Positions 1,237 through 24,442 of a stretch of 64,000 nt of DNA are shown piece after piece (position 1 is the stretch's first letter; every line of letters begins with the position of its first letter). The notes below the pieces were generated by a model. It was not told where the DNA came from and ran no database searches. It saw only the letters and a list, made by a program, of their open reading frames with translations. The position numbers and the translations under genes are program-made. Origin of the DNA: an uncultured virus (IMG/VR IMGVR_UViG_3300026549_002462) (Duplodnaviria; Heunggongvirae; Uroviricota; Caudoviricetes); the IMG/VR virus record IMGVR_UViG_3300026549_002462. One strand, given 5' to 3'.

Positions 1237-1262
1237 TACGATTCCTCCGTGTTGTTTCCGTG

Positions 1263-8299: not shown

Positions 8300-8395
8300 A
8301 TACGGTTCTCCTTTTTAGAAAAATTGCGCAGAGATCTCCAGACCGTGTGCCTGAAGAATCCTGCGCCAGAGTTATATCGGTTTTGGTGGTTCCCG

Positions 8396-8824
8396 TCACG
8401 GAAGTGTCGACTGACCTGCTGTAAGGTTCTGGATCAGTCTGAAGATTCCGCCGAGGAGCATGATGCATGCGTATGCGACCAGTACTCTTTTCAGCCATTC
8501 AAGCGGTGTTCTTGCTCCGTTCGCTGTCGGCGAGATAGCGATCCAGATGAGGCAGATGATAGCAGCGAGGCCAGCTACGAATGTTACGATGCCGAATATC
8601 TTGCCGTAGTATTCTTTCGCCGTGTCTCCTGCCTGGCTGATGATGTCGCCCTCGGCAAAGCAAGTGCTGAACGCCAGAAGAAGCATGAAGCATGTCATCA
8701 CTGCGATAAGGAAGATCCTGTCTCCCTTAGTCAGGCATGCTGCGTCGCCTGTTGACAGTCTCATACCGAAGGCTGTCAGCTCCTTTCTTACCATTCCGGC
8801 TCTTTCCCTGATTCTCTTTACCAT
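8396..8824 (-). CDS. VirB2/TrbC-like pilin
   Basis: Small protein with a signal-like segment, two hydrophobic helices and W-L-K-R-V motif, in T4SS context. Confidence 0.6.
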   Translation of the reverse strand: MVKRIRERAGMVRKELTAFGMRLSTGDAACLTKGDRIFLIAVMTCFMLLLAFSTCFAEGDIISQAGDTAKEYYGKIFGIVTFVAGLAAIICLIWIAISPTANGARTPLEWLKRVLVAYACIMLLGGIFRLIQNLTAGQSTLP

Positions 8825-8875
8825 TTTGATTCCTCCTGTTTTTGTGTGTATGTCATGTATTTGTGCTTGGCTTGA

Positions 8876-10216
8876 TCAGTCGCTGTAGTCCACTACCGTG
8901 AATATCACCTGATCTGCGTCAGGCTCTTTCACGTTGACGATGTGCGAGTAGAACGAGTGCTTGTCCCTGTTCTTGTCGACGATCCTGATCTTCACATCGC
9001 TTCCGACTTCAGGGATGACTCCCCTTCCTGCGCCCGGCCCGAGGTCTGCCATCGATACGATCTGGTCGTTCACGTTGCAGATGTAGAGCACCTTGCCTGT
9101 CTCTTCGTTTTCGACGATCCTGCTGATGGTCGCCGGAAGAAGATCTCCTTCGTCGTATTTATCAAAGTTGACGATCTGCGGGTCTGCTGTCGCTGCTCTT
9201 ATGGAAGCGTCGAACTTGACCGGATAATCGAATCTTGCAAGGGCGCGTCTGTCCTGAGGTACAGGATCGCGTCTTATGTTGGATACGCGTACAAGTACTT
9301 CCTTTCCGGCCTTGTACTTTTTCGTGTTTACTTTTTCTTCGTAGAAGTGAGATATCTGTTTTATCGGGATCGCTGCTTCAGCTCCGAAGACCTCGACTAT
9401 GATGTCGTATGGCCTTACTCTCATGATCCTTGCGTTCTGCAGGCTGTTTTCACCGATGCACCACTCGCCGTCCGATGTCTTCGCGTACCAGTTCTCGCAT
9501 CTGTCGATCTTGGTAGCATAAAGCCTCGTGCCGTAGATATCGGTCGTGACGCCCTGCTCTTTTCTGAACATGTTGAACTCTATCTCGAGCCCTTCCATAG
9601 CAGCTCCCTGCTCGTAGAGCCTCTTTTCCGGGTGCTCATCCTGGTCGTACCAGTTGTACCAGAACTTGAAGGACGGGATTAGGATGATGTACGGTCCGTA
9701 CGAGACCATGTAGTTCACAAACGGGATCCTCTTCCCGTCTATGATGCGTTCTTCCGTGCTCTTGGAGCCGAGCATCCTGCCCTTGAGGGTGTGACGCGGG
9801 TCGACTCTTGATGCCGCGAGCTCTCTGTCTATGCGGTCTATGGCTGAGGTGTCAGGCTTGCCTTCTATAGCCTTTTTTCTGACTGTCGGCACAAGGTCGT
9901 CCATCGGGATGTCTGAGTACTCATCGAGAAGTGCTCCGGACTGCTCCTTCCTGGCTTCCTTTTTCTCCTGCTTTTCTCTCGCTTCCTCCGCTGTCTGTCT
10001 GCGGCGTCTGCCTGCACCGGCTCTTGGGGCTGCGGGTCTCCTGTTTCTTTTAGGAGCTGTATCTGCGTCTGCTTCTTTCGGTGCAGATTCCTTGTTGTTG
10101 AGCTTGTCTATAAGGATCTGCCTCGTGTCCTTCGTGTGGACCTCGATCCCGAAGAGCGTGCACATCTGGATGAGCTCCGCTTTCTTCATTTCTTCGTATT
10201 TCTTAAAACCTGCCAT
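8876..10216 (-). CDS. S1-domain nucleic-acid-binding protein with N-terminal Rho-N/HeH-like and Arg-rich segments
   Basis: S1-like repeats (ARIMRV..IIVEVFGAEA.IP..QIS; VGSDVKIRI). Likely start MAGFK at 10216. Confidence 0.6.
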   Translation of the reverse strand: MAGFKKYEEMKKAELIQMCTLFGIEVHTKDTRQILIDKLNNKESAPKEADADTAPKRNRRPAAPRAGAGRRRRQTAEEAREKQEKKEARKEQSGALLDEYSDIPMDDLVPTVRKKAIEGKPDTSAIDRIDRELAASRVDPRHTLKGRMLGSKSTEERIIDGKRIPFVNYMVSYGPYIILIPSFKFWYNWYDQDEHPEKRLYEQGAAMEGLEIEFNMFRKEQGVTTDIYGTRLYATKIDRCENWYAKTSDGEWCIGENSLQNARIMRVRPYDIIVEVFGAEAAIPIKQISHFYEEKVNTKKYKAGKEVLVRVSNIRRDPVPQDRRALARFDYPVKFDASIRAATADPQIVNFDKYDEGDLLPATISRIVENEETGKVLYICNVNDQIVSMADLGPGAGRGVIPEVGSDVKIRIVDKNRDKHSFYSHIVNVKEPDADQVIFTVVDYSD

Positions 10217-10368
10217 GTTTCTTCTCCTGTCTGCTGGAAATAAAGCAGCGGGCTTCAGGCTTTCCGCCCTGCCCGCTTTAAAGTTACAACTGCTTTTTCT
10301 GTTTGTCTGTATCACCTACTGCATCGTTTGATGCATTTTGGGCGCTTTTTGTTGATGGTTATTGGTTT

Positions 10369-12453
10369 TCACACCAGAAAATCGTCTTCTGTTCTTGTGT
10401 CGTTACCTCTGATGACCTTCTGTGCCGGCTTTTTTCTGGTGCCCGGCTCGATCCTGTAATATCTTGAGGTGTTAGGCTTGCCGCCCTTTCTTACAGGAAT
10501 GTGCTGCGAAGTAAGGAATCTTGTCTCTCTGCCTGTTTCCCTGTCCACTGCATATGCTCCGAACAGAGGATGCATCGACCACTGATACTTTCTCTCCATG
10601 ACAGAGTTGTGTCCTGAAGGAGAAAGAAGGATCTCTGTCGGCTTTATTGCCTGTATCGCATCAGGAGGATATACAAGCTCTTTGTCTGTGGATATCATCT
10701 TCTTCTGGTCGAGGACGAATGCTTCCTGTACTGATTCAGGAAGAGGCTTGAATCTGTTCTCTGTCACTCTTTCCTTGATGACTTCCTTGTAGCCGGCACG
10801 GGATGAGAAATATGTCGCCGTGTCGCCCTTTACGTCAGACCCGACGCCTTCGTTGGCTCCTACGCACAACTGAAGAGCGCAGGAGGATTCTATTACGGAT
10901 CTGCCCGACGGTTCTGCTTTCGTGTTGTACTTGTCAAGCTGGTTCATCGTCTGGATCGAGATCAGGAAACTCATGTTGTAGGATCTGTTCTGCGACAGTA
11001 TCTTGTGAAGATTGTCGAGCCTTCCCAGGTTACTGAACTCCTCGAGCATGACAAACAGCATGTGTTCAAGGCTTCCTCCCCTTCTTTCAGCTATGGTCAT
11101 GTTCTCGTCAAGGACCATATTCACGAACAGCGTCATCGCCTGTATGTATGTCTCCTTTCTGCCTGAGCAGGAGATGTAAATGGTCGCATCGCCTTCTGAA
11201 AGCGCTGAGATGTCTATCTCGTCGGAACTCAGGATGTCCACTACTGCAGGTGACATCAGTACGTCCAGTGCGTTGGCAAGGGATGAACGGATCTGCTTGT
11301 AGTTCTTGTCTTCCTTCCATGTCGTGAAGTAACGGTTAATGAGCCTTCTGTCATGCGGATCTTCAAGAGCTGTCTCAAGGATAGCTATGAGTTCGTCGGA
11401 ATCTGTTGTGACAAGGTTAATGAATTCCCGCCAGGTCCTCCTGTCGTCATAGTCCTCTGAACCTCCCATATCTTCGTCAGGTGAAAGGTCTATCTCGACC
11501 GGGACGAAGCTGTCACAGTGCGTGACGTATAGAAGGAGCAGCTTGAACAGGTTCTTGTTCGTGTTGGTCCAGTATTCTTCATCACCGTTTTCGAGGATAG
11601 TTCCCGCGAAGGATTCCGCGAGCTCTATCGCTGTCGATTCTTCGGCTTCTCTTATCTGCTTAAGGCAGTCCCAGCCGTCGCTGTTCTGAAGCTCGCCGTC
11701 CTTGAAGTTCAGCAGCCATGTCCTTCTTCCGAGGCCTATATCTATCGGTTCCGTCGTCTGATACAGCTCTCCTTTAGGGTCGAATATAAGGCCACCGTGT
11801 CCCATGCATGCGTGCTGCACATATGCTCCTATCAGAAGGCCGCTGGTCTTACCTGCACCGGAAGGGCCGACGACCAGCATGTTGTCGTTCGCAAGGTGCC
11901 ACTCGATGTCTGTCCTGACACCCGGCTGCTTGTTTATGAGCTCGCCGCTCGTCTTGTTTATGGCGATCGGGATGCCTGTCGGTTTGTCTATGTCGGTCAG
12001 CTTGAAGATCCTGCGCTCTTCCTGCTCTGTGAGAATACCGCGTCTGCCTGTCGAGGAGTTGAGGACCACCCTGTCGCCCATCTCGTCCGTGACGATCTTC
12101 GGCGCGTCTATGCTGCTCATCCGGAACTTTGTTATGAGTCTCGAGGCGAAATATGACGCCACCAGGATAAGCGCGATAGTAAACGGTTTTTCCATGAGCC
12201 CGCGGAAAAAGATCGCTACGGGATTGTAGGTGCGCTGGTAATAAGCACCCTCAAAAAGTGATCTCCCGCTGTCAAAAAACTGCAGGAGTGCGAAAAGCAC
12301 CAGAAGAAAAGACCCGACCGACCATCTCGTGCGGATCTTTCTTTTCTGCTCCGGTGTTACTTTCAGCGGGTTCTCCGCTGCTTTCTCGAGCCTGCTCCAT
12401 ATGCTGAAGCGGTTGCGCTCGCCTCCGTCTGTTTCAGTTCTTGCCATTTTCAT
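10369..12453 (-). CDS. virD4: Type IV coupling protein VirD4/TraG
   Basis: N-terminal TMs, Walker A GPSGAGKT, DPKGEL, LEEFSNLG, IQTMNQL. Confidence 0.9.
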   Translation of the reverse strand: MKMARTETDGGERNRFSIWSRLEKAAENPLKVTPEQKRKIRTRWSVGSFLLVLFALLQFFDSGRSLFEGAYYQRTYNPVAIFFRGLMEKPFTIALILVASYFASRLITKFRMSSIDAPKIVTDEMGDRVVLNSSTGRRGILTEQEERRIFKLTDIDKPTGIPIAINKTSGELINKQPGVRTDIEWHLANDNMLVVGPSGAGKTSGLLIGAYVQHACMGHGGLIFDPKGELYQTTEPIDIGLGRRTWLLNFKDGELQNSDGWDCLKQIREAEESTAIELAESFAGTILENGDEEYWTNTNKNLFKLLLLYVTHCDSFVPVEIDLSPDEDMGGSEDYDDRRTWREFINLVTTDSDELIAILETALEDPHDRRLINRYFTTWKEDKNYKQIRSSLANALDVLMSPAVVDILSSDEIDISALSEGDATIYISCSGRKETYIQAMTLFVNMVLDENMTIAERRGGSLEHMLFVMLEEFSNLGRLDNLHKILSQNRSYNMSFLISIQTMNQLDKYNTKAEPSGRSVIESSCALQLCVGANEGVGSDVKGDTATYFSSRAGYKEVIKERVTENRFKPLPESVQEAFVLDQKKMISTDKELVYPPDAIQAIKPTEILLSPSGHNSVMERKYQWSMHPLFGAYAVDRETGRETRFLTSQHIPVRKGGKPNTSRYYRIEPGTRKKPAQKVIRGNDTRTEDDFLV

Positions 12454-12459
12454 TTCTCC

Positions 12460-12777
12460 CTAAAGGCCCTGGAGTCTGAAGCTTTCGGGGAGCCTCGTTA
12501 TCGACTCCTTCTCGGTTATAACGAGAGTGTAGTTCGTGCCCGGTACTCGCATGCCGAGCTGGGATGACATAGGTACCGTCAGAGAGAAGCTCAGTGCGTC
12601 GTCTGTTGCCGCTGCATCCGGCTTTATGCCGAGCTCTGTGAATACGCCGTCTTTTATCTTTTCTTTGAACATGGCTATGGCCGGATAGCTTTTTACTTCA
12701 ACATTTGTCTCATACACTGTTCTGTAGACGCCTATGCCTATGAGGTCCCTTTCAAGCAGGGTGAATTTTATCTGCAT
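12460..12777 (-). CDS. Hypothetical protein
   Basis: 105 aa ORF with RBS, co-oriented upstream of virD4. Confidence 0.6.
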   Translation of the reverse strand: MQIKFTLLERDLIGIGVYRTVYETNVEVKSYPAIAMFKEKIKDGVFTELGIKPDAAATDDALSFSLTVPMSSQLGMRVPGTNYTLVITEKESITRLPESFRLQGL

Positions 12778-12906
12778 TTTTCTCCCCTTTCGTTTTAATA
12801 GAGTGTTATATTTTTTCAGCCTGTCCGATTATATCGCTCCGGACTGTATTATTTTGCACATTCGGAGATGATCTCGTCTCCGGTTCTCATCAAAGAACTT
12901 TCACAG

Positions 12907-12994
12907 ATTTTTCAATTTGAAAAAAATCGCGGAAACCGTTGATACAGCTTTGTTTCAGCTATACTTAAGGAACGCGTTTTTGCGATGGAAATCA
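12907..12994. repeat. ~89 bp dispersed repeat, copy 1
   Basis: TTTTTCAATTTGAAAAA...AGCTATACTTAAG...TTGCGATGGAAATCA. Confidence 0.85.
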
Positions 12995-13459
12995 GTCTCC
13001 GTATCTGTTCTTCTGCCTCTTCTGGAATTCTGTCTGCTCCCAGTCGGGTACGGCTCCATCAGCCTCAAGGCACATAAGAGCTGTTTCTATGAGAAGCGAC
13101 CTCTTTCCTTCCGAAAGAGCTTTCAGTATAGGTGCGAAGATAGTCAGCCCCGTCCTTTCCCAGTCGTTCATTTTCGGGTAGCCCTTTTCGGAGAGCTCGA
13201 TCCGCTTTCTTCCCCAGAGCTGATCAAGGGAGATGTCGAGAGCGTTAGCGATGTCCTTGTCTTTGACATCCCTTTTCCCCGTACCCGGGAGCCTGCTTCC
13301 GTTCTCTATAGCTACGATACCTGCCTTTGTCTCATATCCGGCCTTCTCCGCAAGTTCAGCCTGGCTCATGCCTTTGCTTCTTCTGATCACGCTCACGTTG
13401 AGTGCGAGCCTCTCTTTTTTCTTGCGTTCAATGAAATCCTTCTTCTCTTTGTCGTTCAT
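12992..13459 (-). CDS. XRE-family HTH regulator
   Basis: IRRSKGMSQAELAEKAG...IENG...IANALDISLDQL. Confidence 0.85.
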   Translation of the reverse strand: MNDKEKKDFIERKKKERLALNVSVIRRSKGMSQAELAEKAGYETKAGIVAIENGSRLPGTGKRDVKDKDIANALDISLDQLWGRKRIELSEKGYPKMNDWERTGLTIFAPILKALSEGKRSLLIETALMCLEADGAVPDWEQTEFQKRQKNRYGD

Positions 13460-13461
13460 TG

Positions 13462-14073
13462 CTATGCCTCCCTTCCGCTTTTCTGTTTCCTGTCCACTTC
13501 ACTTTTCAGCTCACTGAGGCGTTCTTCGCATGCTTCGAGCACTCCGCTCTTGGACAGATAGTATTTTGCGTACATGCACATAGTGCACCGCCCTTTGTTG
13601 TCGGGATGGTTCCTGTCATTGAACGAGCAGCATGTCTCCGATGTCATGATCTCTCCTTCTTCGGTCACATGGGTGTCTGCGAAGACCAGAGCTGCGGTGA
13701 TAGGGTTCCAGCCGTAGGTTTCATCGTAGTTCCTGTACTGCCTTACACAGGAGACTGCGTCCTGTTTGAAGCCTGCTTTCGTCATGAGTGATCCGAGCAC
13801 CACCCGGTTCTGATCAGCATAGCCTATGTCCCACATGTCCGGGACCCGGTACAGCAGTCCCGTGTTGTACCAGGCATCGCTCTGCCCCTTCGGGGCTATC
13901 CGTGCCATTATCTCTGCTACTGCAAGATTGTGGTTGTACCAGTCTTCAGAGCTCCTTAGAGCGGTGCAGATCTCGTTCAGATAGATGCATGCGGTCTTGT
14001 ATGATCGTCCGTTTCTCCTCATTCTGGTCAGGTGGTCCAGCATTTCTTTTGATGATAGGTCGCTTTTACTCAT
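13462..14073 (-). CDS. Hypothetical protein with C-terminal Cys cluster
   Basis: ORF with GGAGG RBS. CC...C-x2-C...C motif. Confidence 0.6.
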   Translation of the reverse strand: MSKSDLSSKEMLDHLTRMRRNGRSYKTACIYLNEICTALRSSEDWYNHNLAVAEIMARIAPKGQSDAWYNTGLLYRVPDMWDIGYADQNRVVLGSLMTKAGFKQDAVSCVRQYRNYDETYGWNPITAALVFADTHVTEEGEIMTSETCCSFNDRNHPDNKGRCTMCMYAKYYLSKSGVLEACEERLSELKSEVDRKQKSGREA

Positions 14074-14094
14074 ATCATCCTCCTGTAGTGTCAA

Positions 14095-14183
14095 ATTTTT
14101 TCAATTTGAAAAAAATCGCTGCAGCCCTTGCAATGCAACGGTTACAGCTATACTTAAGAGTCGCGTTTTTGCGATGGGATCTA
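14095..14183. repeat. ~89 bp dispersed repeat, copy 2
   Basis: Same conserved blocks as copy 1. Confidence 0.85.
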
Positions 14184-14522
14184 TGACAGTACGTCGTCCA
14201 TCCTCTTAACGCTCCCTTTTCTCATTTCTTCAAGTGCCTTAGTGTACGGCTCAGGCAGGAAACTGCTCTTTCTCCCGTATGCAGTGATAACAGTCGCATC
14301 CGGGAATATGATCGTGAGTCTGAGCCTGCCGGATGCATCATCTGCAAGCTTCCCCGTCACGATGCAGTTTTCCCATTTTCCGTTTCTGGAGGCTATACAC
14401 TTTAGTGATGACGGCCTGAGGACACTGTTGATCCCAGCGAACCACTGGCTCATATCTCTGAGTTCCCTCTCTCTTACAGTCACGTTCTTTACTATCAGCT
14501 CAGTCAGTATTGGCTTTCTCAT
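14181..14522 (-). CDS. Hypothetical protein
   Basis: 113 aa ORF co-oriented with neighbours. Confidence 0.5.
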   Translation of the reverse strand: MRKPILTELIVKNVTVRERELRDMSQWFAGINSVLRPSSLKCIASRNGKWENCIVTGKLADDASGRLRLTIIFPDATVITAYGRKSSFLPEPYTKALEEMRKGSVKRMDDVLS

Positions 14523-14567
14523 GGTTTTTCCTGCTTCCGTCCTTTTCCTGTTATTGCCATGCGGGAT

Positions 14568-15116
14568 CTATCTCATTCCCGCAAGCTTCTGTTTCACCGT
14601 TATCTTTACTCCGTTTTTCTCTATGCGCTTGCAGAGCCACATGATGTTGTTGCTGAGACCGTCTACAAACATCACGCGTCTGCCTTTGCTGTATAGATCA
14701 AGTCCCCCTCGTTTCATTACGCAGCGGTCTATGTCCTTAAGGAGCACCGTCCGCTTTATGCACCACAGCCTGTATGCCGTGATGCTGTCGTCTGTCACTC
14801 GCTGGTCCCAGAAGTGTTTTACAGGAGCCAGCATCAGAAGGACGCTGATAACTATGAATGAACCGTATATTGCGAGGAGCGGTTTATCAAGCTGCCCGCT
14901 TACGTATGCGCCGTATGCACACGCTGTTGAGAATCCCCCGAATAACGCACCTGTGAATGCAAGTGATGAGTTCGGTCTCACGTCGAAGTTTTTGCCCGGC
15001 CCGCCTTTTTTCCTGTTTGCACTTACAAAGATCAGGTCGAGCGAAAGGGGAACTATGTATATGACGAACAGTATCCCTATACCGCTGAATATGTTTTCTA
15101 TAACCTTGACGATCAT
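14568..15116 (-). CDS. Membrane protein (3 TM plus possible PH-like tail)
   Basis: Hydrophobic segments followed by a beta-rich tail. RBS present. Confidence 0.6.
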   Translation of the reverse strand: MIVKVIENIFSGIGILFVIYIVPLSLDLIFVSANRKKGGPGKNFDVRPNSSLAFTGALFGGFSTACAYGAYVSGQLDKPLLAIYGSFIVISVLLMLAPVKHFWDQRVTDDSITAYRLWCIKRTVLLKDIDRCVMKRGGLDLYSKGRRVMFVDGLSNNIMWLCKRIEKNGVKITVKQKLAGMR

Positions 15117-15331
15117 ACTGCTCCCTTCTTGTTTTTGTGTTCTGTGTTTCTGCCCGCCCCGGGGAGCGCTCTCTGCATAGCGTTCAAAGCGGTTGTTTTT
15201 GGCTGTGCGCGTCTTTTTGCTTTGTTTCGTGGAATTATGCGTTGCGGCCGTAAAAATCGCTTAAATCGCAAATTTTGACCTTTAGTAGCTGCGCTTTCCT
15301 TTCTTTTCTTCCGGATGAGTTTGCCACACCA

Positions 15332-15420
15332 ATTTTTTCAATTTGAAAAATTTCTCTGTAACGCAGTCAAATCAACGCTTTGGGGCATACTTAAGGATTT
15401 GAAAATTGCGATGGAAATCA
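15332..15420. repeat. ~89 bp dispersed repeat, copy 3 (more diverged)
   Basis: TTTTTCAATTTGAAAAA...ATACTTAAGG...TTGCGATGGAAATCA. Confidence 0.8.
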
Positions 15421-16074
15421 GCTGACGAATCCCTTATGCTGATCACTGTTGCCCGCCTCATCAAAAATGTCGTCGTAAAGGCCTTTCCCGTACGCGGCTA
15501 CTTCTATGCCTTCGACGTGTACACTAAGCGCCTCAGGCACAGCGGAGACAGCTCTTTTTATCATTTCCACCTTGTCTGCGCCATTTTCCATCGCTACATC
15601 GGTCACCATAGCGATTCCCCTTGCCAGTATCTCTATTACTGCAGCTTCGACCACATCTGCACTTTTCATGACATGATCGCCGGCATAGCTTACAAGACAC
15701 TCTCCGTCGACATTGAGCGATAACTCTCCGTCTCCGCCGTACAGGCACACGATGGAATCTCTTGCCCTGTTCGCCAGGCATTCAATGAATTCCACTTTAT
15801 CCTCTGGTGCATTCGTGACCGTAAGAAGGTCTGCCAGTGTGAGCAGGAGCCCGCCTGTCACCTGTTTTGCGACATTACCGATGTCGCAGCCGTTTTCATC
15901 AGAGAAGCACTTGATCCTGTCTGCGAGCACATATCCTGCAAGTGTCATTGCGAGTTCTTCGTCTTCTGCGTTCTGATCTGCACCTATCAGTTCAATGGCT
16001 GTTATTCGGTCTGTCACTCTTAGCTTTATGTTGCTTCCGTCATAATCGATCGACGCTATCTGTTTCTTTTTCAT
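15418..16074 (-). CDS. Hypothetical acidic protein
   Basis: Likely start MKKKQ at 16074 after an AGGAG RBS. Confidence 0.6.
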   Translation of the reverse strand: MKKKQIASIDYDGSNIKLRVTDRITAIELIGADQNAEDEELAMTLAGYVLADRIKCFSDENGCDIGNVAKQVTGGLLLTLADLLTVTNAPEDKVEFIECLANRARDSIVCLYGGDGELSLNVDGECLVSYAGDHVMKSADVVEAAVIEILARGIAMVTDVAMENGADKVEMIKRAVSAVPEALSVHVEGIEVAAYGKGLYDDIFDEAGNSDQHKGFVS

Positions 16075-16224
16075 TTGCGTTGTTCTCCTGTTTGCTGCTT
16101 TGGGAACGGAAAGGCACCTCACATAGCTCTGTGGGCGCCGTATTTTTGTTCTGAAGCGTTTTTTGTAGTTTTCGGGGCATTTCCCCATGTTGGTGTTTTT
16201 GTCCGCTCTAAGGCGGGATTCCGG

Positions 16225-17370
16225 CTATTCTCTTTCTGCAGCGAGCAGAAGCCCTCTGAAGTGAGAAGGGGAGAGCACCATCGCGTCAAGCCCTGTATCA
16301 TACACACTTTCCAGCACCTCTTTCTGCCAGTCATGTACTATGAGTCTGCACCTTTTGCGCCTGATGCGTGATTCTATCTCCTTGATCCTGCCAAGATTGC
16401 AGCACAGAAGGTTATATATCGGCTTTCCGGACTCTGTTCTTCCATCTTCATCGTTTCCCGGAGAGGAGGAGAGACCGAGAATCTTGTTTATCTTGTTCCT
16501 CCAGTCAGGTATCGTGAGCATTTTTGCAACATCCATAGCGTGGCTTTCGTCCTCCGTCGGGATAACGTAGCACAACCTGTATATCGCTGTGGGGTCCATT
16601 CTGCTTTCTTCCTTGCCACTCATCTTAAGAAGGTCTTCCGCAACTTTTCCTGTCTCAGCGAAGATGACTGCCTTGAGTCTCCGGTCTCTGCTGCGCTCAA
16701 TGTCCAGAGCGTCCTCGTACATACGCCTGATGTCGATTGCTGTCTGTGTCTCGGATGCAGCATACCACCGGAACTTTGGGGTGGAGATAATATAAACACA
16801 TATCGGGCCTGTTTCGCTGAAGATCGTGCCTGACTGTATGGACATTTCGCGCCGTGTGTGCTGCATGTCCTGTGTCTTTCTTTTGAGGATCGGACCGCTT
16901 ATGTATAGGGGCATTCTTTTTGGTGCACTCCGGATTATCTCCGTGGCATCGGTAAGGGTAGGGGAGTAGAACAGATGTTCCTTATTCTCGAATCCGGCTC
17001 CGTCTACATTGAAGCCCGCGTCCAGGAACGCATTTATAAGCATGGCCTCCCTGCGCTTTTTGAGGCGGTATTCTTTTCCCCCGGGATATCTTGCCCCTTT
17101 TTTGCCGGCGAGAACTTCCACATGTTCCGAGAGCCGCGGGTCCATATTATCTATCCAGTCAAAGCCGGCGGGGTCGCAGATCCGGTACGTTCTCTTCCTG
17201 TCCGGGTGACGGAAGTAGCGTATAAGATCATCAGCGAGCATGTGCCTCAGTTCGTCGCCTGCCGACGACGGTGGGGCGGGGGCCCTGTCCCGAACCTTAA
17301 GCGAAAGAATCTCACCAGACATACCAAGTCTAAACATGTAATGATTTCTTACTTTTTCATTCATAACCAA
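16225..17370 (-). CDS. Hypothetical conjugation-region protein (possibly replication-relaxation-like)
   Basis: 381 aa ORF between virB4 and virD4. Only weak resemblance to the family. Confidence 0.4.
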   Translation of the reverse strand: MVMNEKVRNHYMFRLGMSGEILSLKVRDRAPAPPSSAGDELRHMLADDLIRYFRHPDRKRTYRICDPAGFDWIDNMDPRLSEHVEVLAGKKGARYPGGKEYRLKKRREAMLINAFLDAGFNVDGAGFENKEHLFYSPTLTDATEIIRSAPKRMPLYISGPILKRKTQDMQHTRREMSIQSGTIFSETGPICVYIISTPKFRWYAASETQTAIDIRRMYEDALDIERSRDRRLKAVIFAETGKVAEDLLKMSGKEESRMDPTAIYRLCYVIPTEDESHAMDVAKMLTIPDWRNKINKILGLSSSPGNDEDGRTESGKPIYNLLCCNLGRIKEIESRIRRKRCRLIVHDWQKEVLESVYDTGLDAMVLSPSHFRGLLLAAERE

Positions 17371-17557
17371 AACCCAACATGATCTAAGGTTTTTATTTTT
17401 ATTCTTCCTCCTGTTTGGTTTAACGAGGTATTGCTTTCAGCAACCACCTCTACCAAACCCTTTAGGATGAGGCGGGTAAAAATCGTGGTCAAACCATTGG
17501 AATTTCAACGGTTTCAGCTAACTGATTTTTTGATTTTTGCAAAAAGCAGAAAATCAG

Positions 17558-18265
17558 TTACTTTTTTGACTGATTTTTTGTGATTTTTACAGCCGAATCC
17601 GAGCTTCTTGCAGCAATCATTTCGTAGATGAAAGGCTCTTTTCTGTCTGCAATATAGATGTCGCAGTAGGACTCATCCGGATCTTTGACTGCCATGTTCA
17701 TCGTAATGAGAGAGAGGGCGTTATCGTCTCTTATGAAGGTGCCCTGAAGTGCATCCAGGGCTCTTTTTGAATCGATATTGTCGAAGTCAAACACCTTCTG
17801 AAAGCTGCTGCAAATGTGATGTTCAAAGACAATAAGAGGTTCTTCTATCTTCTGGATCTTCCCGTTTTCGCGTTCGTAATCTGCCTGAAGATTCATCACG
17901 AGATAGAATATGTGCTTACCTGCATTTGACGGCCCTCTGTCAGAAGACTGGACGGAGTAGAAGGGAGGGAGATGGAATTTCCAGAGTCCCGGCTTCAGCT
18001 CCGTGAGGCATGCATCAAAATAGTCGGTAGTGCCGATCATTTCATGATTGTTGCCGATCTGCCTGTCCTGCATGTCGTACACAAGTCTTTTCAGTTTCAG
18101 GTAGATTTCTTCATTGTCGATCGCGAAACTGTTTGTTAATGCCTTCACGCTTTCATCCTGCTCGGTGTATAGCGCGTACGCAAGGTCGCTGATTTTTCTT
18201 GTCTGCAATTTGACCAGTTCCTGGTAATCCAGGAGGCTCTTTATGCTTCTATCTCTGTCTATCAT
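17558..18265 (-). CDS. DUF6100-like protein with RusA-type acidic motif
   Basis: D-F-D-N-x3-K-x3-D...DD motif. Confidence 0.55.
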   Translation of the reverse strand: MIDRDRSIKSLLDYQELVKLQTRKISDLAYALYTEQDESVKALTNSFAIDNEEIYLKLKRLVYDMQDRQIGNNHEMIGTTDYFDACLTELKPGLWKFHLPPFYSVQSSDRGPSNAGKHIFYLVMNLQADYERENGKIQKIEEPLIVFEHHICSSFQKVFDFDNIDSKRALDALQGTFIRDDNALSLITMNMAVKDPDESYCDIYIADRKEPFIYEMIAARSSDSAVKITKNQSKK

Positions 18266-18875
18266 TTTTTCCCTCTGTGTCTGTGAGTATGCATGTTGCT
18301 ATGCCTGTTTCCGGTGACTTTCTCACTATGCCAAGTCTGTGGCTGCCGAAAAGGACCGGCTTTTTGCCCCTCAGTTCCTCGGACGGTATCCTTGACGGAT
18401 ACACAAATAAAGTGATTTCACCTTTTTTTCTTTTCTTTTCGAATTTTTCCAGAAGCCGCAGTTTCTGTGCGCCCCGGTCATTATTTATGATCACATCATA
18501 CATAAGTCCGGTCGTCGTATAGAAAATGTAGTCCTCAGGAAGGTCTGTGCGAACAGCAGCGACCTCGTTCTCTTCTCCTTTTTCCTTTTCTTCTTTCATC
18601 ACCGCAAGGTACACATCAAAGGCATCAAGTTTGTCGCTGCTTGCTCTTTCTTTCTTGTCTGCCTTGAGGATATGTGTGTCTGCATATTTCGCCTTTGTGA
18701 TGATGCGCGCCTGCAGAAATTTTTCCGTCAGATCCTCGGCGGTCTCCTTGCATATGCCGAAATAAAGGCAAAGATAGAGAAGAAAAGAATCGTATCTGAT
18801 CGCACCGAACACCTTTATAAGCTGCGATGTGTCAGAGAGAAATCGTCTTGTTATCTTTATTTCTTTTCTGCCCAT
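18249..18875 (-). CDS. Hypothetical protein (DUF5697-like)
   Basis: 208 aa ORF directly downstream of virB4. Confidence 0.45.
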   Translation of the reverse strand: MGRKEIKITRRFLSDTSQLIKVFGAIRYDSFLLYLCLYFGICKETAEDLTEKFLQARIITKAKYADTHILKADKKERASSDKLDAFDVYLAVMKEEKEKGEENEVAAVRTDLPEDYIFYTTTGLMYDVIINNDRGAQKLRLLEKFEKKRKKGEITLFVYPSRIPSEELRGKKPVLFGSHRLGIVRKSPETGIATCILTDTEGKNDRQR

Positions 18876-18883
18876 GTTTCCTC

Positions 18884-21418
18884 CTATGAGTAGTTTTCCA
18901 TACCGGCACGAGCCTGTTTTTCAAGTTCCTCGCGCTGAGTCGTGAACAGCATGTGCTCAGACGGGGAGGCTTTGACCTTGATAGGAATATGACTTGCTCC
19001 TGCGCAGAAAAGGGCTTCGCCCTTATCCTGGCTCGGGATGGTCATCATTTCCTCTCTTGTAAGTCCCAGTTTGGCGGAAATATTATCGAGGTCGGTCTTT
19101 TCCATTCCGAGGATCAGCTTTGAGTGAGAGCAGGAGAGGATGGCATTGCCGTAATTGTCTCTTCCGTTGAAAAGGTCGACGATAGACTGTGTAGCGAAGA
19201 TCGCTCCTCCGCCGAATCCTCTTATGACCTTGAAGATCTCCTGAACGAACTCTCCTACCTGACGGTTGTTTCCGTCCAGAAGCTGCCATCCCTCGTCGAT
19301 GGTTATCATCTTTTTCTTGGTTCTGTCCTGCCTGCATTTTGCCCATATGAATTCCAGTATGATGAACATTGTCGGTGCAAGCATATCGTTTTTGATATTT
19401 TCAAGGCCAAAGACTATATACTTGTTGCCGAGATTCACATTCGTATGACCGTTCATGTTCCTGCAGGCACCATTGATGAAACGGGACATGATTATCACGA
19501 TCTCCTTGCGGATCTTTCCCTCATCGGATGCTGCCTTGATCCTGTCGTAGAAGTCGGAAATTATAGGCATCTTCTTGAGCGTGGTATGCTCAGCGTCTTC
19601 GTAGATGCTGTTGTTATCCTCGTTCATGCCGAAATCTTCGTAAAGATGCAGCAGGATCGTCTCAAGCTGCGTTTTTTCAGCAAGTGTAAGGTCAGGGATG
19701 AGATACGTCAGCCATATCTTGAGGTTGTCTATCTTGTCGATGACCCATGATTTTTCTGAATATGAATTTCCTCCGAGAAATGCAGTGACAGGGGAGGACA
19801 TAGGCCTTATCTCGAGAGGATTGATCCTCTGGTTCGATGTGGCTGCTATGTCGACAAACTCTCCGCCGACTGCGTCACATATCCTTCTGAACTCGTCCTG
19901 TTTGTCCGGTGCGAGAATAAAGTTCTGCACGCCGTGATATCTGAGCCTTGTCGTTATGGTCATGAGAGAGTAGGTCTTTCCGTGTCCTGATGCTCCGTAA
20001 ATCGACATGTTTGCGTTCGCATATCTCGAGTCGAACGGGTCGTAGAGTACCATCGACGCATTCTCTCTGTGATATCCGACTGCGATGCCGTTTTTATCCG
20101 AAAGGGAAAATGCCGTGAACGGATATGCTGCGGCAACTGCGCTGGTAGTGAGGTTGCGTCTGCCCACGTTCAGGAGTTTCGGCCTTAGATTCATAGTGTA
20201 TCCGGTCGAATAGAAGGCTTCTTCCTGATATCTTTTACACTCAAGAATGTCTACGTCGAGAGTTATGGCAGCCTTTTTCATCGCTTTCTTACGAAGATCC
20301 AGCTCTTCAAGAGTGTGTGCCCAGACGGTTATGAGGACTGTGATATCGTAAACGGACTCTCTTCCTCCCTTAAGAGCCTGCTTCATCCACATCGCTCCGG
20401 AGTAGTTTTCAGCTATCTCTTCTGCGTTTTCCTGCTCGGCCTCTGTGTTCGTGAGCTTGTATTTCTGCCACTTGAGGGTGTTTTTTATGCTGCTTAGCTT
20501 CTGTGAAGAGTCATCTTTGATGAAATAGATGTCTATATCGTAACCGTATCCGAAGTTTATGATCCCCGAAAGCCAGCCGCCCTGCGTCAGCATGTAGTTC
20601 GGCATCGTGTTTCCTCTAACGAAGAAGTGGCTCCTGTACATGCCGTCGATGACCATGTAGGAAGGGGACTCGTTAAAGTCTATCGACTTCGGCGCTATCA
20701 GATTCCTGATGTCGAACGGGATATCTGCATCAGGCAGCATCTCGAGCACCTTTGCGCGGTCGTCCCTTATCCTCAGAACTCTTTTGTTGTAAGGCTCAGT
20801 GTTCTTCGTGGCTCTGTTATAGTAGTTATACAGAAGTTCAGACAGCTTTCCGTCTTCGTTCGAAGTAAAAAGAAAAACGTCGTTTCCGAGGCCTTTGAAT
20901 CCGGAAGCGATCTCTTCTGCTTTTCGGTTTATTATATTTATGCCTTCTTCTTCAGTTTGGATGCCTTTTACTTCCTCGCCCTGGAGCTGGAAGATGAAGT
21001 AGTAGTGCTTACGATATGTATCTAGTCCTCCTTCGTTCTGGAGATACTGTATATACTGCGAAATAAGTGATTTGCAGGAGTCATCCTTTTCTTCCTGATA
21101 AGCGGCCCGTGCCATAGCTACGTATTCATCGATATTTGAGAAGGTCGTGATGACTTTGATGTGGAAATCAGCATAGATCGTTTTGATGAGAGCCGCGTAT
21201 TTTCTTATGGTCGAATCCTGCTCTTCATCAGACATGATGTTGAAGTTGATGGCCACGATCTCCATTATCTTGATGAATTTCCGGTTTCTGCCGTTCTCAT
21301 CTTCGGTAATGACGACGCCGTCCTTTATTCTGCTCTCCTGAATGAAGTCCTGTGTCCACTCCGGGACTCTTGTGCTGTTAAATGACAGTCCGAGATCCCT
21401 CCCGAGATTTATATCCAT
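18884..21418 (-). CDS. virB4: VirB4-like T4SS ATPase
   Basis: Walker A GASGHGKT, INPLEI, IDEGWQ, ATQ. Start MDINL at 21418 after a GAAAGGAG RBS. Confidence 0.92.
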   Translation of the reverse strand: MDINLGRDLGLSFNSTRVPEWTQDFIQESRIKDGVVITEDENGRNRKFIKIMEIVAINFNIMSDEEQDSTIRKYAALIKTIYADFHIKVITTFSNIDEYVAMARAAYQEEKDDSCKSLISQYIQYLQNEGGLDTYRKHYYFIFQLQGEEVKGIQTEEEGINIINRKAEEIASGFKGLGNDVFLFTSNEDGKLSELLYNYYNRATKNTEPYNKRVLRIRDDRAKVLEMLPDADIPFDIRNLIAPKSIDFNESPSYMVIDGMYRSHFFVRGNTMPNYMLTQGGWLSGIINFGYGYDIDIYFIKDDSSQKLSSIKNTLKWQKYKLTNTEAEQENAEEIAENYSGAMWMKQALKGGRESVYDITVLITVWAHTLEELDLRKKAMKKAAITLDVDILECKRYQEEAFYSTGYTMNLRPKLLNVGRRNLTTSAVAAAYPFTAFSLSDKNGIAVGYHRENASMVLYDPFDSRYANANMSIYGASGHGKTYSLMTITTRLRYHGVQNFILAPDKQDEFRRICDAVGGEFVDIAATSNQRINPLEIRPMSSPVTAFLGGNSYSEKSWVIDKIDNLKIWLTYLIPDLTLAEKTQLETILLHLYEDFGMNEDNNSIYEDAEHTTLKKMPIISDFYDRIKAASDEGKIRKEIVIIMSRFINGACRNMNGHTNVNLGNKYIVFGLENIKNDMLAPTMFIILEFIWAKCRQDRTKKKMITIDEGWQLLDGNNRQVGEFVQEIFKVIRGFGGGAIFATQSIVDLFNGRDNYGNAILSCSHSKLILGMEKTDLDNISAKLGLTREEMMTIPSQDKGEALFCAGASHIPIKVKASPSEHMLFTTQREELEKQARAGMENYS

Positions 21419-21483
21419 TAAAAATCTCCTTTCGCTTCGATGTATTTTGCCCGCCTGTTTCATACCTTTCTTTTCACGGTACG

Positions 21484-21512
21484 AAAAAAGGGCAGGGGAG
21501 TATCCCTTGCCC
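21484..21512 (-). terminator. Intrinsic terminator in the virB4 leader
   Basis: Minus strand GGGCAAGGG-atact-CCCCTGCCC-TTTTTT. Confidence 0.75.
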
Positions 21513-21626
21513 GAATCAGTCTAGGTTCATGTTAACATGATAGCACTGCTTGACACGAATGTCCGTATCACTTAGTGTCGTTTTTGATGCATTTTGCCGT
21601 TTTTTTGGATGAAAATCGCCGGTTTT

Positions 21627-22214
21627 TTATTTTTGTTTTTTCCCAAGTTGCCAGATTATGTCTACCAGATGTGAAATTTCCTTCTGTGCATTGCCGTCCT
21701 CGTCGAAGTTCGCCATGCTGCACATATACTCATAGAGGCTGTATGCCGCCTGCTCGAAAAAGTAGTTGCAGTTGTTGAATGTGAAGTATTGCTTCAGCAT
21801 TTTGCCGAACAGTTCAGCCCTGTCTTTGGGTTTGATGCCTTCAAAGAATGATCGTGCAGCCAGTTGATCAGGATCATTATTTTCCAGATCGAAGACGATG
21901 ATCCGTCTTTTGGCTTCACTTATTGGATCGGCTTTGGCATCGCTGTGTAGTTCAGGGTGGCGGACAGCATAGCTAATGTCCTCTTTATACTCAATTCTGA
22001 ATATATCAGTAAAGACCTCACACAGCTTTTTTGTGTAGAAAAGATCCATAGCTTCAGCCGGCATGGTTTCATCGTAACTCAGGTAAGATTTCGTGAGCAT
22101 ATCGGCAGCATTTTGAAAACCAAGTCTTTTAGGGAGTCTGATCGACATGGCGACTATTTTTTCTTGTTGATTCGCGGTATCCCTGATCGGGAGCTCAAGA
22201 TTTATTGGTTGCAT
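21627..22214 (-). CDS. Hypothetical protein divergent from rep
   Basis: 195 aa ORF with GAGG RBS. Confidence 0.6.
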   Translation of the reverse strand: MQPINLELPIRDTANQQEKIVAMSIRLPKRLGFQNAADMLTKSYLSYDETMPAEAMDLFYTKKLCEVFTDIFRIEYKEDISYAVRHPELHSDAKADPISEAKRRIIVFDLENNDPDQLAARSFFEGIKPKDRAELFGKMLKQYFTFNNCNYFFEQAAYSLYEYMCSMANFDEDGNAQKEISHLVDIIWQLGKKQK

Positions 22215-22535
22215 TTCCTACCTCGCTTCACTGCTTTGTGCGGCTTTTAGTCCGCTTAGTTTATTCGTTACTCACGCTTTATAAGATATTACCATTTTTT
22301 TACACTATTCGATATGTTTTTTACACTATATTGCAAGTAAATAACATAAAACTGTAATGTGTTGTAGCTATATGATAATATCTAACAGGCTTTTGATGCT
22401 ATAGAAAATTGTTCTTTTTGAAATAAAAGTCAATGAGTAAACCGCTGGGTTTTTATATTAAGTTTATTTTTCAATTTATTTTTTAATTTATTTATCGGAG
22501 CAGCCAAGCCCAGTGATATCAACGGGTTCACGAAA

Positions 22536-23050
22536 TCAATCGTGACATTTTGGGGTCAATCGTGACATTTTGGGGAGTAAACGAGACAAATTGGGAATTT
22601 AATCGTGACATTTTGGGGAAGGGCGAAATTTCAATCGGGACGTTTTGGGGCGCATAGCACTTCGATCCATGAAAATGCATTTAAAACCCCTGCGAAAGGC
22701 TGATAATTCAAGGATTTTGGGCAGAAACGGCGATATGGGGCCATATAATAGATCGATATGAGGTAAAAAGTCCCGTTATTTCAAGGCTTTTGTTAACGGA
22801 TAAAATGAATGTGTACAGTTCAATCGTGACATTTTGGGGCGGTTTTTATTTCAATCGTGACATTTTGGGCAAGAGCGATATTTCAATCGTGACATTTTGG
22901 GGAACGTTGAAATTTCAACGTTTGCAGTCTCTTTGAGGCTCGTGAAAAGCAGATTTTGCATCTCCAATCGTGACATTTTGGGGAAGTCTTATATTTTCAA
23001 TCGTGACATTTTGGGGACGATAGCGATAGTTCAATCGTGACATTTTGGGG
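22536..23050 (+). repeat. Iteron array (plasmid oriV), consensus TCAATCGTGACATTTTGGGG, ~11 copies in two clusters
   Basis: Copies at about 22536, 22556, 22577 (degenerate), 22599, 22631, 22820, 22851, 22883, 22964, 22997, 23031. AT-rich tract at 22260-22500. Upstream of rep. Confidence 0.92.
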
Positions 23051-23093
23051 AAGAGGGTGTTCGCAGTAAAACCACAAAATAAGGTGCGCCCAC

Positions 23094-23142
23094 CTCAATC
23101 GTGACGCAATTTATTGACATGTCACGATTGAGCCCTTATAAT
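23094..23142 (+). promoter_or_regulatory. rep promoter with inverted half-iteron operator
   Basis: TTGACA(23114)-17 bp-TATAAT(23137), overlapped by the inverted repeat CTCAATCGTGAC...GTCACGATTGAG. Confidence 0.9.
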
Positions 23143-23185
23143 CAAGCTGCAACTATGGCAACGAAGTATAGAGGTGCTTTCAATA

Positions 23186-24442
23186 ATGGCTAACGAAATT
23201 GTAAGATATCATAACGACTTTGCTTCAGTCAGCCTCGTCAGCTTTTCTGCGGTTGAGCAGAACATGTTTGCGGCAGTACTGTATGAATGTCGGGGAAAGG
23301 GTTCACAGAAGCACTATCTGTCTCTTGAATATCTGAGAGAGCTTTCAGGATTTTCGGCAAAGGATAACGCGAGATTTATGTCTTGTGTCAAAGAATTTGC
23401 AAAGAAGATGCACACTCTTTTCTATATGGAAGATAAAGAGGACGGCGGGTTCAAAAGTTTTGTGTTGTTTCCCCGGTTTGAGACAGTGGATCTGGACACG
23501 GATGATCCTAAACTGGAAATAAGGGTGGATGAGGATTACGCTTATATAATCAACACTGATCCGGAGTTTCTCCCCGAAGGGACACTGAAGCTTTTGAGTG
23601 CTGGTTATACCACGTTCGAGCTGGCTCAGCATAATGCTCTGAAATCAGGCTACAGCAAGAATGCATTCAGACAGCTCAAACGGTTCAAAAAGACAGGCTG
23701 GTGGGAGGTATCCATTGAGGATTTCAGGCGGCTTTTAGATGTACCTGAAAAGTACAGGATGTCTGAGCTAAGAAAGCGCGTGCTTGTACCTATCAAAGAG
23801 GAGCTTTCAGATCTGTTCGAAGGGCTTACTATCACCGAAAAAAAGGGAGGGCCGTCAGGTAGGAAGGTTCTTGGTTTGAGATTTGATTTCAAGCCGCAGC
23901 TGGAAAAAGGGATCTGGCACGATGATGATATCTACGGAGAGCTGCGTGAAGAATACAACTGTCCTGTATGCGGAGAACCTTTGTATGCAATAGTCAAGAA
24001 TACAGGTGACGTGTTCTACGGTCATAAAGGAGGGTGGAATACGTCGGCTCCTTGCAGACAAACATTTGGAAGTCTCAGAGAGATACTCAGACAGAAGGGC
24101 AGCCCAATAATTAAAGAAGCTGAAAAGCATCCATATATTGAAAGGGATAAGCCTAAAATAGAAAAAACGGGATTCAGCTGCAGAGCGTGCGGAAAGCCTC
24201 TGTTCAAACTTTACAACGATAAGGGGGAAATGTTCTACGGACATATAGACGGATGGAAGAAAGATGCTGTCTGCAGAGAGACCTACAGCAGCGTTGCTGA
24301 GATAAGAGGGTACAGCGAGACACCGACGCGATCCGATCATGCAGATTATGATTTGACCGAAGGAGATCCTAATACAGCAAAGGATATATACGGGATATTC
24401 GAAACGATAACCAACGATATCATGGACAAGGAGCAGGAATGA
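23186..24442 (+). CDS. repB: Rep_3/RepB-family replication initiator with two C-terminal zinc ribbons
   Basis: IVRYHNDF, LKSGYSK..FRQLKRF, DFRRLLDVP..Y..SEL.KRVL.P motifs. Adjacent iterons. Confidence 0.9.
   Translation: MANEIVRYHNDFASVSLVSFSAVEQNMFAAVLYECRGKGSQKHYLSLEYLRELSGFSAKDNARFMSCVKEFAKKMHTLFYMEDKEDGGFKSFVLFPRFETVDLDTDDPKLEIRVDEDYAYIINTDPEFLPEGTLKLLSAGYTTFELAQHNALKSGYSKNAFRQLKRFKKTGWWEVSIEDFRRLLDVPEKYRMSELRKRVLVPIKEELSDLFEGLTITEKKGGPSGRKVLGLRFDFKPQLEKGIWHDDDIYGELREEYNCPVCGEPLYAIVKNTGDVFYGHKGGWNTSAPCRQTFGSLREILRQKGSPIIKEAEKHPYIERDKPKIEKTGFSCRACGKPLFKLYNDKGEMFYGHIDGWKKDAVCRETYSSVAEIRGYSETPTRSDHADYDLTEGDPNTAKDIYGIFETITNDIMDKEQE

Follow-up and report, generated by a model that had tools for sequence, protein, structure and literature searches.

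A 93-nt repeat on stop codons of a plasmid conjugation operon, a candidate intercistronic control element

Within a conjugation operon on the minus strand of the 64,000-nt DNA analysed here (IMG/VR record IMGVR_UViG_3300026549_002462, the whole of which we call the window), three repeats, R1 to R3, each begin on the stop codon of a gene and carry three conserved boxes at fixed spacing. Our analysis points, with a probability that we put at roughly 0.4, to R1-R3 being copies of a composite element in the gaps between cistrons, which would serve both control and insulation and would mark module boundaries as well. The window belongs to a large plasmid-like, conjugative replicon known from ruminant gut metagenomes, and the host of the repeats is best read as an uncultured rumen Firmicutes-type megaplasmid with a type IV secretion (conjugation) operon. 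An earlier note on this DNA had likened the repeats to a gene-cassette or recombination-site array and had offered repeated operators or RNA-processing sites as the alternative; the evidence presented below now favours a reading of that second kind.

Read on the minus strand, which is the strand of the genes, each repeat runs from the stop codon through box A (CCATCGCAA), 10 nt, box B (CTTAAGTAT) and a variable centre of 36 nt to a 17-bp palindrome, C (TTTTTCAAATTGAAAAA), the left arm of which extends a run of 5-7 T. R1 (12903-12995) starts on the stop TGA (12992-12994) of an XRE-family gene and consists of box A at 12980-12988, the 10-nt spacer at 12970-12979, box B at 12961-12969, the centre at 12925-12960 and C at 12908-12924. 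R2 (14091-14183) starts on the stop TAG (14181-14183) of gene g113, with box A at 14169-14177, box B at 14150-14158, the centre at 14114-14149 and C at 14097-14113, and here the next gene follows closely, with its ribosome-binding site and its ATG (14073) within 23 nt downstream. R3 (15328-15421), on the stop TGA (15418-15420) of g256, has box A at 15406-15414, box B at 15387-15395, the centre at 15351-15386 and C at 15334-15350. All three are in the same orientation within 2.5 kb, and their stops (TGA, TAG and TGA) overlap GAT, the first bases of the repeats. The conserved unit at these coordinates is about 93 nt, longer than the ~89 bp first given. The observation that the repeats and a fourth related site, R4, abut the stop codons of upstream minus-strand genes holds for all four, as the ends of the upstream open reading frames (ORFs) at 12992, 14181, 15418 and 17558 coincide with the ends of the sites.

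Motif scans, shuffled sequences and a profile search all confirmed that there are three copies with blocks at fixed spacing. With up to 3 mismatches allowed, palindrome C was found at 3 places in the 64 kb (6 matches over both strands) against a mean of 0.27 in 100 shuffles, none of which reached 6 matches. The composite pattern B-N10-A, at the same tolerance, gave 3 matches in the window where 0.02 were expected, and again none of the 100 shuffles reached 3. An nhmmer profile made from five copies recovered no full copy in the window other than R1-R3, which had E values of 1e-25 to 1e-23. Because of these shuffle counts and E values a chance origin of the repeats is excluded. The window is 99.9% identical to a 162,836-nt contig, C42, of the 2.5-Mb genome G001, and over the whole length of C42 the same profile found only three full copies; in the rest of G001 the B-N10-A pattern gave only two chance matches with 3 mismatches, as many as a reversed control pattern.

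A scan of metagenomes with the repeat pattern returned 11 loci, of which 3 were the window's own record, 6 were unrelated chance matches and 2, L011 and L017, were true relatives; loci L013-L015 are 100% identical to the window. Scans of viral sequences returned 2, 0 and 7 loci, none with related flanks. The comparison of conservation therefore rests on two short partial relatives, 76-82% identical to the window. L011 (82%) spans part of R2, genes g203 and XRE, R1, g105 and the start of virD4, and L017 (76%) spans part of g113, g182, the gap after R3 and R3. Over the two relatives, 102 of the 103 aligned positions in boxes A, B and C agree, and there is 1 gap column: 34/34 for R1 against L011 (where the gap column lies), 33/34 for R2 against L011 and 35/35 for R3 against L017. 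The sole substitution, in box B of the L011 R2, changes CTTAAGTAT to CTTAAATAT. C is a perfect 8-1-8 dyad in five of the six copies compared (the three of the window, L011 R2 and L017 R3); the exception is L011 R1, where one arm has T as its outermost base and the dyad is imperfect. The CAAATTG at the centre of C is identical in all six. Coding DNA is 79-86% identical to that of the relatives, and the gaps after R1 and R3 are 59% and 62% identical with indels, including 8 gap columns in the spacer after R1. The centres of R1, R2 and R3 are 50% (18/36), 83% and 72% identical and have 0 gap columns in 108 positions. Because the boxes outconserve both coding and intergenic DNA and the centre is free of indels, these alignments show purifying selection on the boxes and on the two spacer lengths (10 and 36 nt), while the sequence from B to C is largely free to drift.

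This pattern excludes a neutral relic and speaks against a mobile repeat of recent spread. A selfish or relic repeat without function, either an insertion like a miniature inverted-repeat transposable element (MITE) or a leftover of segmental duplication, might be suggested by the short, equal length of the copies and by a weak similarity of their two ends (GATTTCCATCGCAAAAA versus GATTTTTTTCAAATTGAAAAA). We regard it as very improbable and largely refuted by the conservation, given boxes that are far better conserved than neutral DNA around a centre that drifts. The similarity of the ends is too weak for a MITE, there is no target duplication at the flanks, the only 3 copies are clustered in 2.5 kb in one orientation and all at stop codons, and the genes that they enclose are not paralogues (no pair with E below 0.08).

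The variable centre is where the copies differ in folding. The outer stem that RNAalifold predicts for the aligned copies (GCTGAAAC/GTTTCAGC) has 8 pairs, two of them with a compensatory change, and is broken in both R3 copies; it directly precedes GA and seven T, and a small AU hairpin of C is predicted as well. The centre hairpin has a folding energy of -17.0 kcal/mol in R2, -14.1 in L011 R2, -10.0 in L011 R1, -5.9 in L017 R3, -5.7 in R1 and -3.1 in R3, and the tail behind it is GA + T7, or AAA + T5 in R3. By these energies the form of an intrinsic terminator is present in R2, L011 R2 and L011 R1, weak in R1 and absent from R3 and L017 R3, and on this folding model R2 resembles an intrinsic terminator and R1 a weak one, whereas R3 has no such resemblance. 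The variable imperfect central palindrome that the earlier note ascribed to the repeats is thus clear in R1 and R2 and barely present in R3. The consensus of the centres is a decayed long palindrome of the type found in R4.

We infer every step of the following mechanism. RNA polymerase coming from the operon promoter would meet a hairpin and T-run directly behind each gene pair, and these would act as a partial terminator or attenuator that is strong in R2, weak in R1 and decayed in R3. The hairpin would be kept at a fixed distance between the upstream boxes A and B and the perfect 17-bp C, which overlaps the T-run. C would be the operator to which a dimeric protein binds, the nearest candidate being the XRE protein, the gene of which lies just upstream of R1, and A and B would bind the same or a second factor. 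What is bound at C and at A and B would gate or reinforce the partial terminator, and boxes and hairpin together would then set how much transcription passes into the next unit, so that the two-gene units would be insulated from one another. The fixed spacing over a drifting centre, the overlap of the C dyad with the T-run and the boxes of R3 that stand without a hairpin argue for a nucleoprotein or RNA-protein site and not for a bare terminator. We also count as support the XRE helix-turn-helix (HTH) gene within the array and a second repeated regulatory module, with a promoter and two hairpins, of which the same plasmid has 5 copies.

Several points weigh against such an element. A simple terminator scan flagged none of R1-R3. 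R3 and L017 R3 barely fold (-3.1 and -5.9 kcal/mol) yet retain A, B and C, and the conserved function therefore needs no hairpin. A consensus scan finds no sigma-70 promoter in R1-R3 on the gene strand, where the best hexamer pairs seen by eye reach at most 4/6 and 3/6 at the wrong spacing, so the element is not a full promoter-terminator cassette. The XRE protein is a candidate for binding by its position only, A and B could equally well act in RNA, and the comparison covers just two relatives, both short and partial.

Control by termination has a possible parallel at the head of the operon. A hairpin, GGGCAAGGGATACTCCCCTGCCC, followed by six T (21484-21512, minus strand) lies about 20 nt before the start of the VirB4 gene (-23.5 kcal/mol for the whole 77-nt segment), and its sequence suggests that the transfer operon may be under leader attenuation or antitermination control; with so strong a hairpin and T6 before virB4 the operon must be read through terminators. 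A promoter-like site (21565-21537, minus strand) stands upstream of this leader hairpin. On the gene strand the motif (G/A)CGATTTT occurs 6 times in the first 23 kb, and 5 of these lie in 2,180 intergenic bases, each behind a gene end.

That A and B could act in RNA leads to an alternative in which A, B and the AU hairpin of C work in the polycistronic mRNA, either as motifs bound by an antiterminator or terminator factor that recognises RNA or as processing and stability signals, so that each gene pair would get its own mRNA fate. It is consistent with an element that lies wholly within transcribed intercistronic RNA, begins at the stop codon and holds its conserved single-stranded boxes at a fixed distance ahead of a hairpin and U-run, and the operon also encodes a protein (8876-10315) that has an S1 RNA-binding domain. 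RNA run X20 contains six contigs of 151-241 nt without differing letters and two short partial matches. One X20 contig, a single observation of read length, ends at 12993, on the boundary between the R1 stop and the repeat; this counts in favour of action in RNA and may be chance (about 2 in 100, by our estimate). We nevertheless think this alternative unlikely. Rfam 15 gave no match in 8000-24000 at E <=1, and in the whole window at E <=0.1 only a HEARO RNA and one tRNA, both elsewhere; no covariation was found for pairs that involve A or B; and the R3 copies have no hairpin to regulate. C itself, a perfect DNA dyad with weak A-U pairs and no G-U variants, is better explained as a DNA operator. 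Operons in which one regulator acts on several attenuators are known, as in the Bacillus subtilis pyr operon with PyrR and the bgl/sac systems with their ribonucleic antiterminator (RAT) sites. R1-R3 resemble these in that several intercistronic copies of a motif stand beside a terminator hairpin in one operon, but those systems use alternative RNA folds, whereas none is conserved here and R3 is without a hairpin.

The opposite strand offers another reading, in which plus-strand B would be the -10 element TATACT (CATACT in R3) of an antisense promoter module, C, which spans roughly -64 to -48, a site for an activator or one like an UP element, and box A the conserved start of an antisense RNA directed into the 3' end of the upstream gene pair. 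TATACT agrees with the consensus at 5/6 positions, and the sole substitution in B (L011 R2) gives TATATT, still 5/6. The distance from C to B is fixed, as a promoter needs, and TTGATA, TTGCAA or TTGAAA stands 15 bp upstream in 3 of the 6 copies. These -35-like hexamers are absent from the other 3 copies and leave a spacer of 15 bp, and a scan with spacers of 16-18 bp reports no such promoter; we consider an antisense promoter highly unlikely.

Further candidates were tried and rejected. Translation of the boxes as a read-through tail fails as the frame is lost in L011 R1, and a plasmid-encoded sigma factor was dropped with no Sigma70_r2 or Sigma70_r4_2 match on C42. The iterons of the Rep3 region (TCAATCGTGACATTTTGGGG) are not the same element, as they show no similarity to it. 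SECIS (selenocysteine insertion sequence), sigma-54, CodY box, parS, oriT and lambda att core were compared by eye with general consensus sequences and none fits.

The genes that stand between the repeats (all on the minus strand) were described in the earlier note as two-gene units, and this was borne out. The unit between R2 and R1 (12992-14073) holds g203 (13462-14073) and the XRE-family HTH protein (12992-13459; Pfam HTH_3, E 3.9e-8), and that between R3 and R2 (14181-15116) holds g182 (14568-15116), which is membrane-like with a Pfam DUF6560 match (E 5.5e-8), and g113 (14181-14522). Between R4 and R3 (15418-17364) are g381 (16225-17364) and g256 (15418-16074 or 15418-16188). No sequence family was found for g203; its Atlas structure model resembles clusters of HD-domain phosphohydrolases (TM 0.57, feature score 0.94), and we take an HD-like fold as a lead only. 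The distribution of g203 is narrow, with only 2 clusters among 5.8 billion protein clusters, its own (100%) and one at 82% identity, whereas g381 has 19 clusters down to 47% identity. For six of these the longest contigs are equal in size to those of VirD4 homologues (39500, 100446, 44112, 15795, 28835 and 10435), and because of this match g381 is core to the plasmid family. The representatives of g182, one at 85% identity and the next at 41-44%, leave its core or accessory status unsettled.

What changes at the repeats between lineages bears on the question of mobility. At GATTT(T)CCATCGCAA, precisely on the 5' edge of R3, the homology of L017 to the window ends. Beyond this point the DNA is different: g256 was not found upstream of R3 in L017, and the 206 nt that stand there are unrelated to g256 and carry a second copy of a 17-nt motif, ATTTGCGATTTAAGCGG, that also stands after R3 in that locus. 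At the same time g203 and the XRE gene are kept in L011 (80% nucleotide identity) and g182 and g113 in L017 (79%), so that both inter-repeat units are retained in the same order over about 20% nucleotide divergence. Between these two short relatives and the window, content differs in the DNA upstream of R3 and is the same in the two units between the repeats. As far as the alignments can tell, the repeats sit where content differs between lineages and are selected cis elements at module boundaries.

A new kind of site-specific recombination site would account for some of this. C would be its core, with T/A-rich arms and a 7-bp CAAATTG overlap, A and B would be one-sided accessory sites, and a recombinase from elsewhere on the replicon would excise and insert the two-gene units as cassettes. 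Direct repeats that bracket gene pairs and begin on stop codons agree with it, as do the CAAATTG shared by all six copies, the homology break at the edge of R3 in L017 and the narrow distribution of g203. Fixed spacing across a variable spacer is, moreover, typical of multi-site recombination sites such as res. Among 52 window ORFs scanned with Pfam there was no Phage_integrase match, which bears out the remark that the window has no recombinase. Enzymes, which count in favour of this reading, were found when the rest of the replicon was considered: C42 encodes four tyrosine recombinases, three in a row at 91-3270 and one at 105000-106115, together with a resolvase (161993-162676) and a DDE transposase. 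The tyrosine recombinases lie at least 27 kb from the window's end of C42, and the absence of any recombinase within about 27 kb is a point against the recombination site, as is the stability of three direct sites and the enclosed genes over the divergence given above. The break in L017, too, lies at the A end of the repeat and not at C.

Circular or empty-site junctions, which the earlier note had proposed to seek, were not encountered: contigs of three DNA runs contained no joint of one repeat to another, a weak negative as contigs drop rare forms, and the main contigs of runs X11, X15 and X17 are colinear with the window. X17 contains joints of 15275 to 17497 (2221 skipped, 16 letters between, side 22), of 15275 to 16128 (side 26) and of 17465 to 17640, and there are loose ends at 15250/15275 and 17430/17518 in X17 and at 17485/17520 in X15. 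These have short sides or a likeness under 90%, may belong to other organisms and serve as leads only.

Known recombination sites also differ from the repeats, which match neither attC nor dif, as had been judged by eye. In attC the outer core sites are inverse complements (R''/L'' with L'/R') and one strand folds into a single long hairpin. The repeats resemble integron attC in standing directly 3' of a promoterless gene unit, in having conserved ends around a variable, imperfectly palindromic centre and in forming an array of direct repeats. Their left end is, however, the self-complementary C and their right end (B, A) is not complementary to it, so that pairs of the R''/R' or L''/L' kind are missing; apart from the central 8-pair stem and the small C hairpin the consensus fold is empty; and there is no IntI, attI or Pc nearby, the units have two genes and the array is stable in relatives. 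A dif site is 28 bp long, with two 11-bp arms around a 6-bp centre, whereas the only dyad here is the 8-1-8 of 17 bp with arms of T and A runs, so that the 11-6-11 layout of Xer dif/pdif sites is missing. Sites of the res type comprise several dimer-binding subsites with a common half-site motif beside a resolvase gene. A length of about 90 bp in all and the fixed distances between boxes would suit this type, but A and B lack the half-site of C (by eye) and the resolvase is distant on C42. The outer boxes are, besides, not inverted copies of each other. A site-specific recombination site appears distinctly unlikely to us, and a cassette system independent of the integron, with C (T/A arms, CAAATTG) as crossover core and A and B as one-sided accessory sites, is if anything a slightly longer shot. 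Of the comparison with a cassette array, then, the homology break at R3 and the narrow g203 speak for it, and the retained units, the missing adjacent recombinase and the lack of repeat-to-repeat joints speak against it. The two-gene units may be mobile as cassettes, a candidate idea only.

Two other sites in the operon are related to R1-R3 at a distance. R4 (17476-17560, minus strand) has its stop TAA (17558-17560) within an AT-rich palindrome with 18-bp arms, followed by a hairpin, AGCTGAAACCGTTG..CAATGGTTT, and then CGATTTTTAC (z -4.2). It had been presented in the earlier note as a fourth related site at 17478-17560. It does abut a stop codon, but the central hairpin (AGCTGAAACCGTTG...GGTTT) and the tail CGATTTTT are all that it has in common with R1-R3, and its nhmmer E value is 0.11. 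R3b (15250-15275, minus strand), in the gap after R3, is a partial relic or motif, AAATTTGCGATTTAAGCGATTTTTAC, the tail of which, CGATTTTTAC, is common to R4. In L017 the R3b motif stands twice and flanks R3, with a 17-nt direct repeat at 1026-1042 and 1337-1353.

The closest described analogue of R1-R3 is the promoter-early stem-loop (PeSL) of T4-like phages. PeSL cassettes are about 100 nt long, begin on the stop codon of the gene before them and include a stem-loop that acts as terminator or attenuator (PMC2839356; PMC4122927). The small genes beside them have no known function and occupy a variable region with core genes on either side, and the cassettes recombine into mini-circles (PMC2839356). 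Like them, R1-R3 are composite intergenic elements of about 100 nt that start from the upstream stop codon and contain a stem-loop (in R1 and R2, weak in R3), and they too stand beside small genes without known function, in a variable stretch among core genes; PeSLs are proposed there to be linkers for homologous recombination. PeSLs differ in having a strong sigma-70 promoter, whereas none is detectable in R1-R3, and in numbering about 50 per phage genome against 3 copies on the plasmid. Boxes A and B and the 17-bp dyad C are without a counterpart in the PeSLs as described there, and mini-circles are described for the PeSLs. A break point of the PeSL type at the element is seen in one case, the end of L017 homology at the 5' edge of R3 (from two short relatives). 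By analogy the repeats may mediate module exchange by homologous recombination, as PeSLs do in T4-like phages, and their conservation would make them natural linkers for such exchange.

A second comparison is with the conjugation operons of Gram-positive plasmids. In the part of the pLS20 literature used here these have many internal terminators and processive antitermination (the conAn system of pLS20), and weak internal promoters yield transcripts that end two genes downstream at the next terminator (PMC8955417). The operon studied here is similar to that description in having a hairpin and T-run inside a long conjugation operon and a leader terminator before the first gene of the type IV secretion system, and two-gene subsets may be differently expressed. 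It differs in that those terminators are not described, in that part of the source, as a family of related sequences with conserved boxes on their flanks at a set distance. We noticed no conAn-like system here, and no model search was aimed at one.

The transfer operon, of the Gram-positive type, runs on the minus strand from about 22 kb down to position 1. The array is flanked upstream by a VirB4-like ATPase (18884-21463, minus strand; Pfam TraG P-loop, E 3e-20, and AAA_10) and downstream by g105 (12460-12777, minus strand) and a VirD4-type coupling protein (10369-12453, minus strand; Pfam T4SS-DNA_transf, E 6e-31); a TrbL/VirB6-like protein, a cell-wall hydrolase of 1755 amino acids with NlpC/P60 and M23 domains and a PrgI-like protein are also encoded in the operon. 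Elsewhere the window encodes the Rep3 initiator, ParA, ParB, two single-stranded DNA-binding protein (SSB) genes and helicases. About eleven of the 20-nt iterons mentioned above lie in three groups at 22536-23054. The Rep3 gene itself (23174-24442) is downstream of them, and the Rep3 region has a sigma-70 promoter of perfect consensus, TTGACA-17-TATAAT, at 23114-23142; the iteron region is likely to be oriV.

Parts of the 5.3-kb stretch with the repeats, at the least, were found in 20 public runs from 11 studies, mostly of bovine and sheep gut, and 18 of the 20 carry at least half of its sampled words; three of the runs may be where the stretch came from. The plasmid is thus widespread in metagenomes of the ruminant gut. 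Among annotated plasmids in PLSDB the nearest VirD4 relatives are only 23% identical (tblastn; Subdoligranulum and Oscillibacter), and neither megablast of the 5.3-kb stretch nor blastn of R2 found anything related there. G001 itself is the only one of 401 genomes sampled from its order with this VirD4. In collections of genomes and viral contigs, a search by the VirD4 protein followed by a 17-sequence alignment gave no relatives, and the literature gave no description of such an element nor of this plasmid type.

The second repeat family, about 150 nt long, is present in 5 copies that are 87-95% alike, at 31237-31336 and 44119-44271 of the window and at 131665-131815, 132375-132449 and 140620-140779 of C42. 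A copy consists of a TATAAT-type promoter, a conserved TTAACGTATTCTCAGCTT, two strong hairpins each with a T-run, a ribosome-binding site and an ATG; a different gene stands behind each copy, and one copy is upstream of parB. There was no Rfam match to this family; by its build it could be a promoter-leader or attenuator that several genes share, or else a module for a small RNA.

Other features of the replicon were recorded in passing. C42 carries a Cas12a (Cpf1) gene (146277-149930), a type I restriction system with a GmrSD gene (in the region 152295-158697), sortase-dependent pilin-like proteins and a second VirD4-like gene (21954-23936). A small module occurs twice on it (13571-13894 and 14452-14721), with a TTGACA...TATAAT promoter, a conserved RNA-like stretch and a short hydrophobic ORF opposite, and resembles a type I toxin-antitoxin locus. 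Three stretches of the window (53490-55382, 56510-57973 and 60376-61503) hold a tRNA gene, a HEARO (omega) RNA (Rfam, 121.7 bits), an IscB-type RRXRR+HNH protein, a second RRXRR protein and a TnpB with a Cas12f-like TNB domain; a third RRXRR gene is at 107818-109167 of C42. At 55502-56323 the window encodes an unusual fusion of a GNAT acetyltransferase domain with the C-terminal domain of RNA polymerase alpha (Pfam E 1.6e-10).

Conjugation operons are long, costly and tightly controlled, and how accessory genes enter them and come to be expressed while the machinery stays intact is poorly understood, chiefly in the plasmids of uncultured gut anaerobes. If the cassette reading were true, two-gene units would be excised, captured and reshuffled inside a conjugation operon and would use the transcription of the transfer machinery; equally new, if true, would be intercistronic terminators that are gated by proteins and form a family with three boxes each. 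The 93-nt element is a candidate for an insulator and linker that would let modules join a transfer operon.

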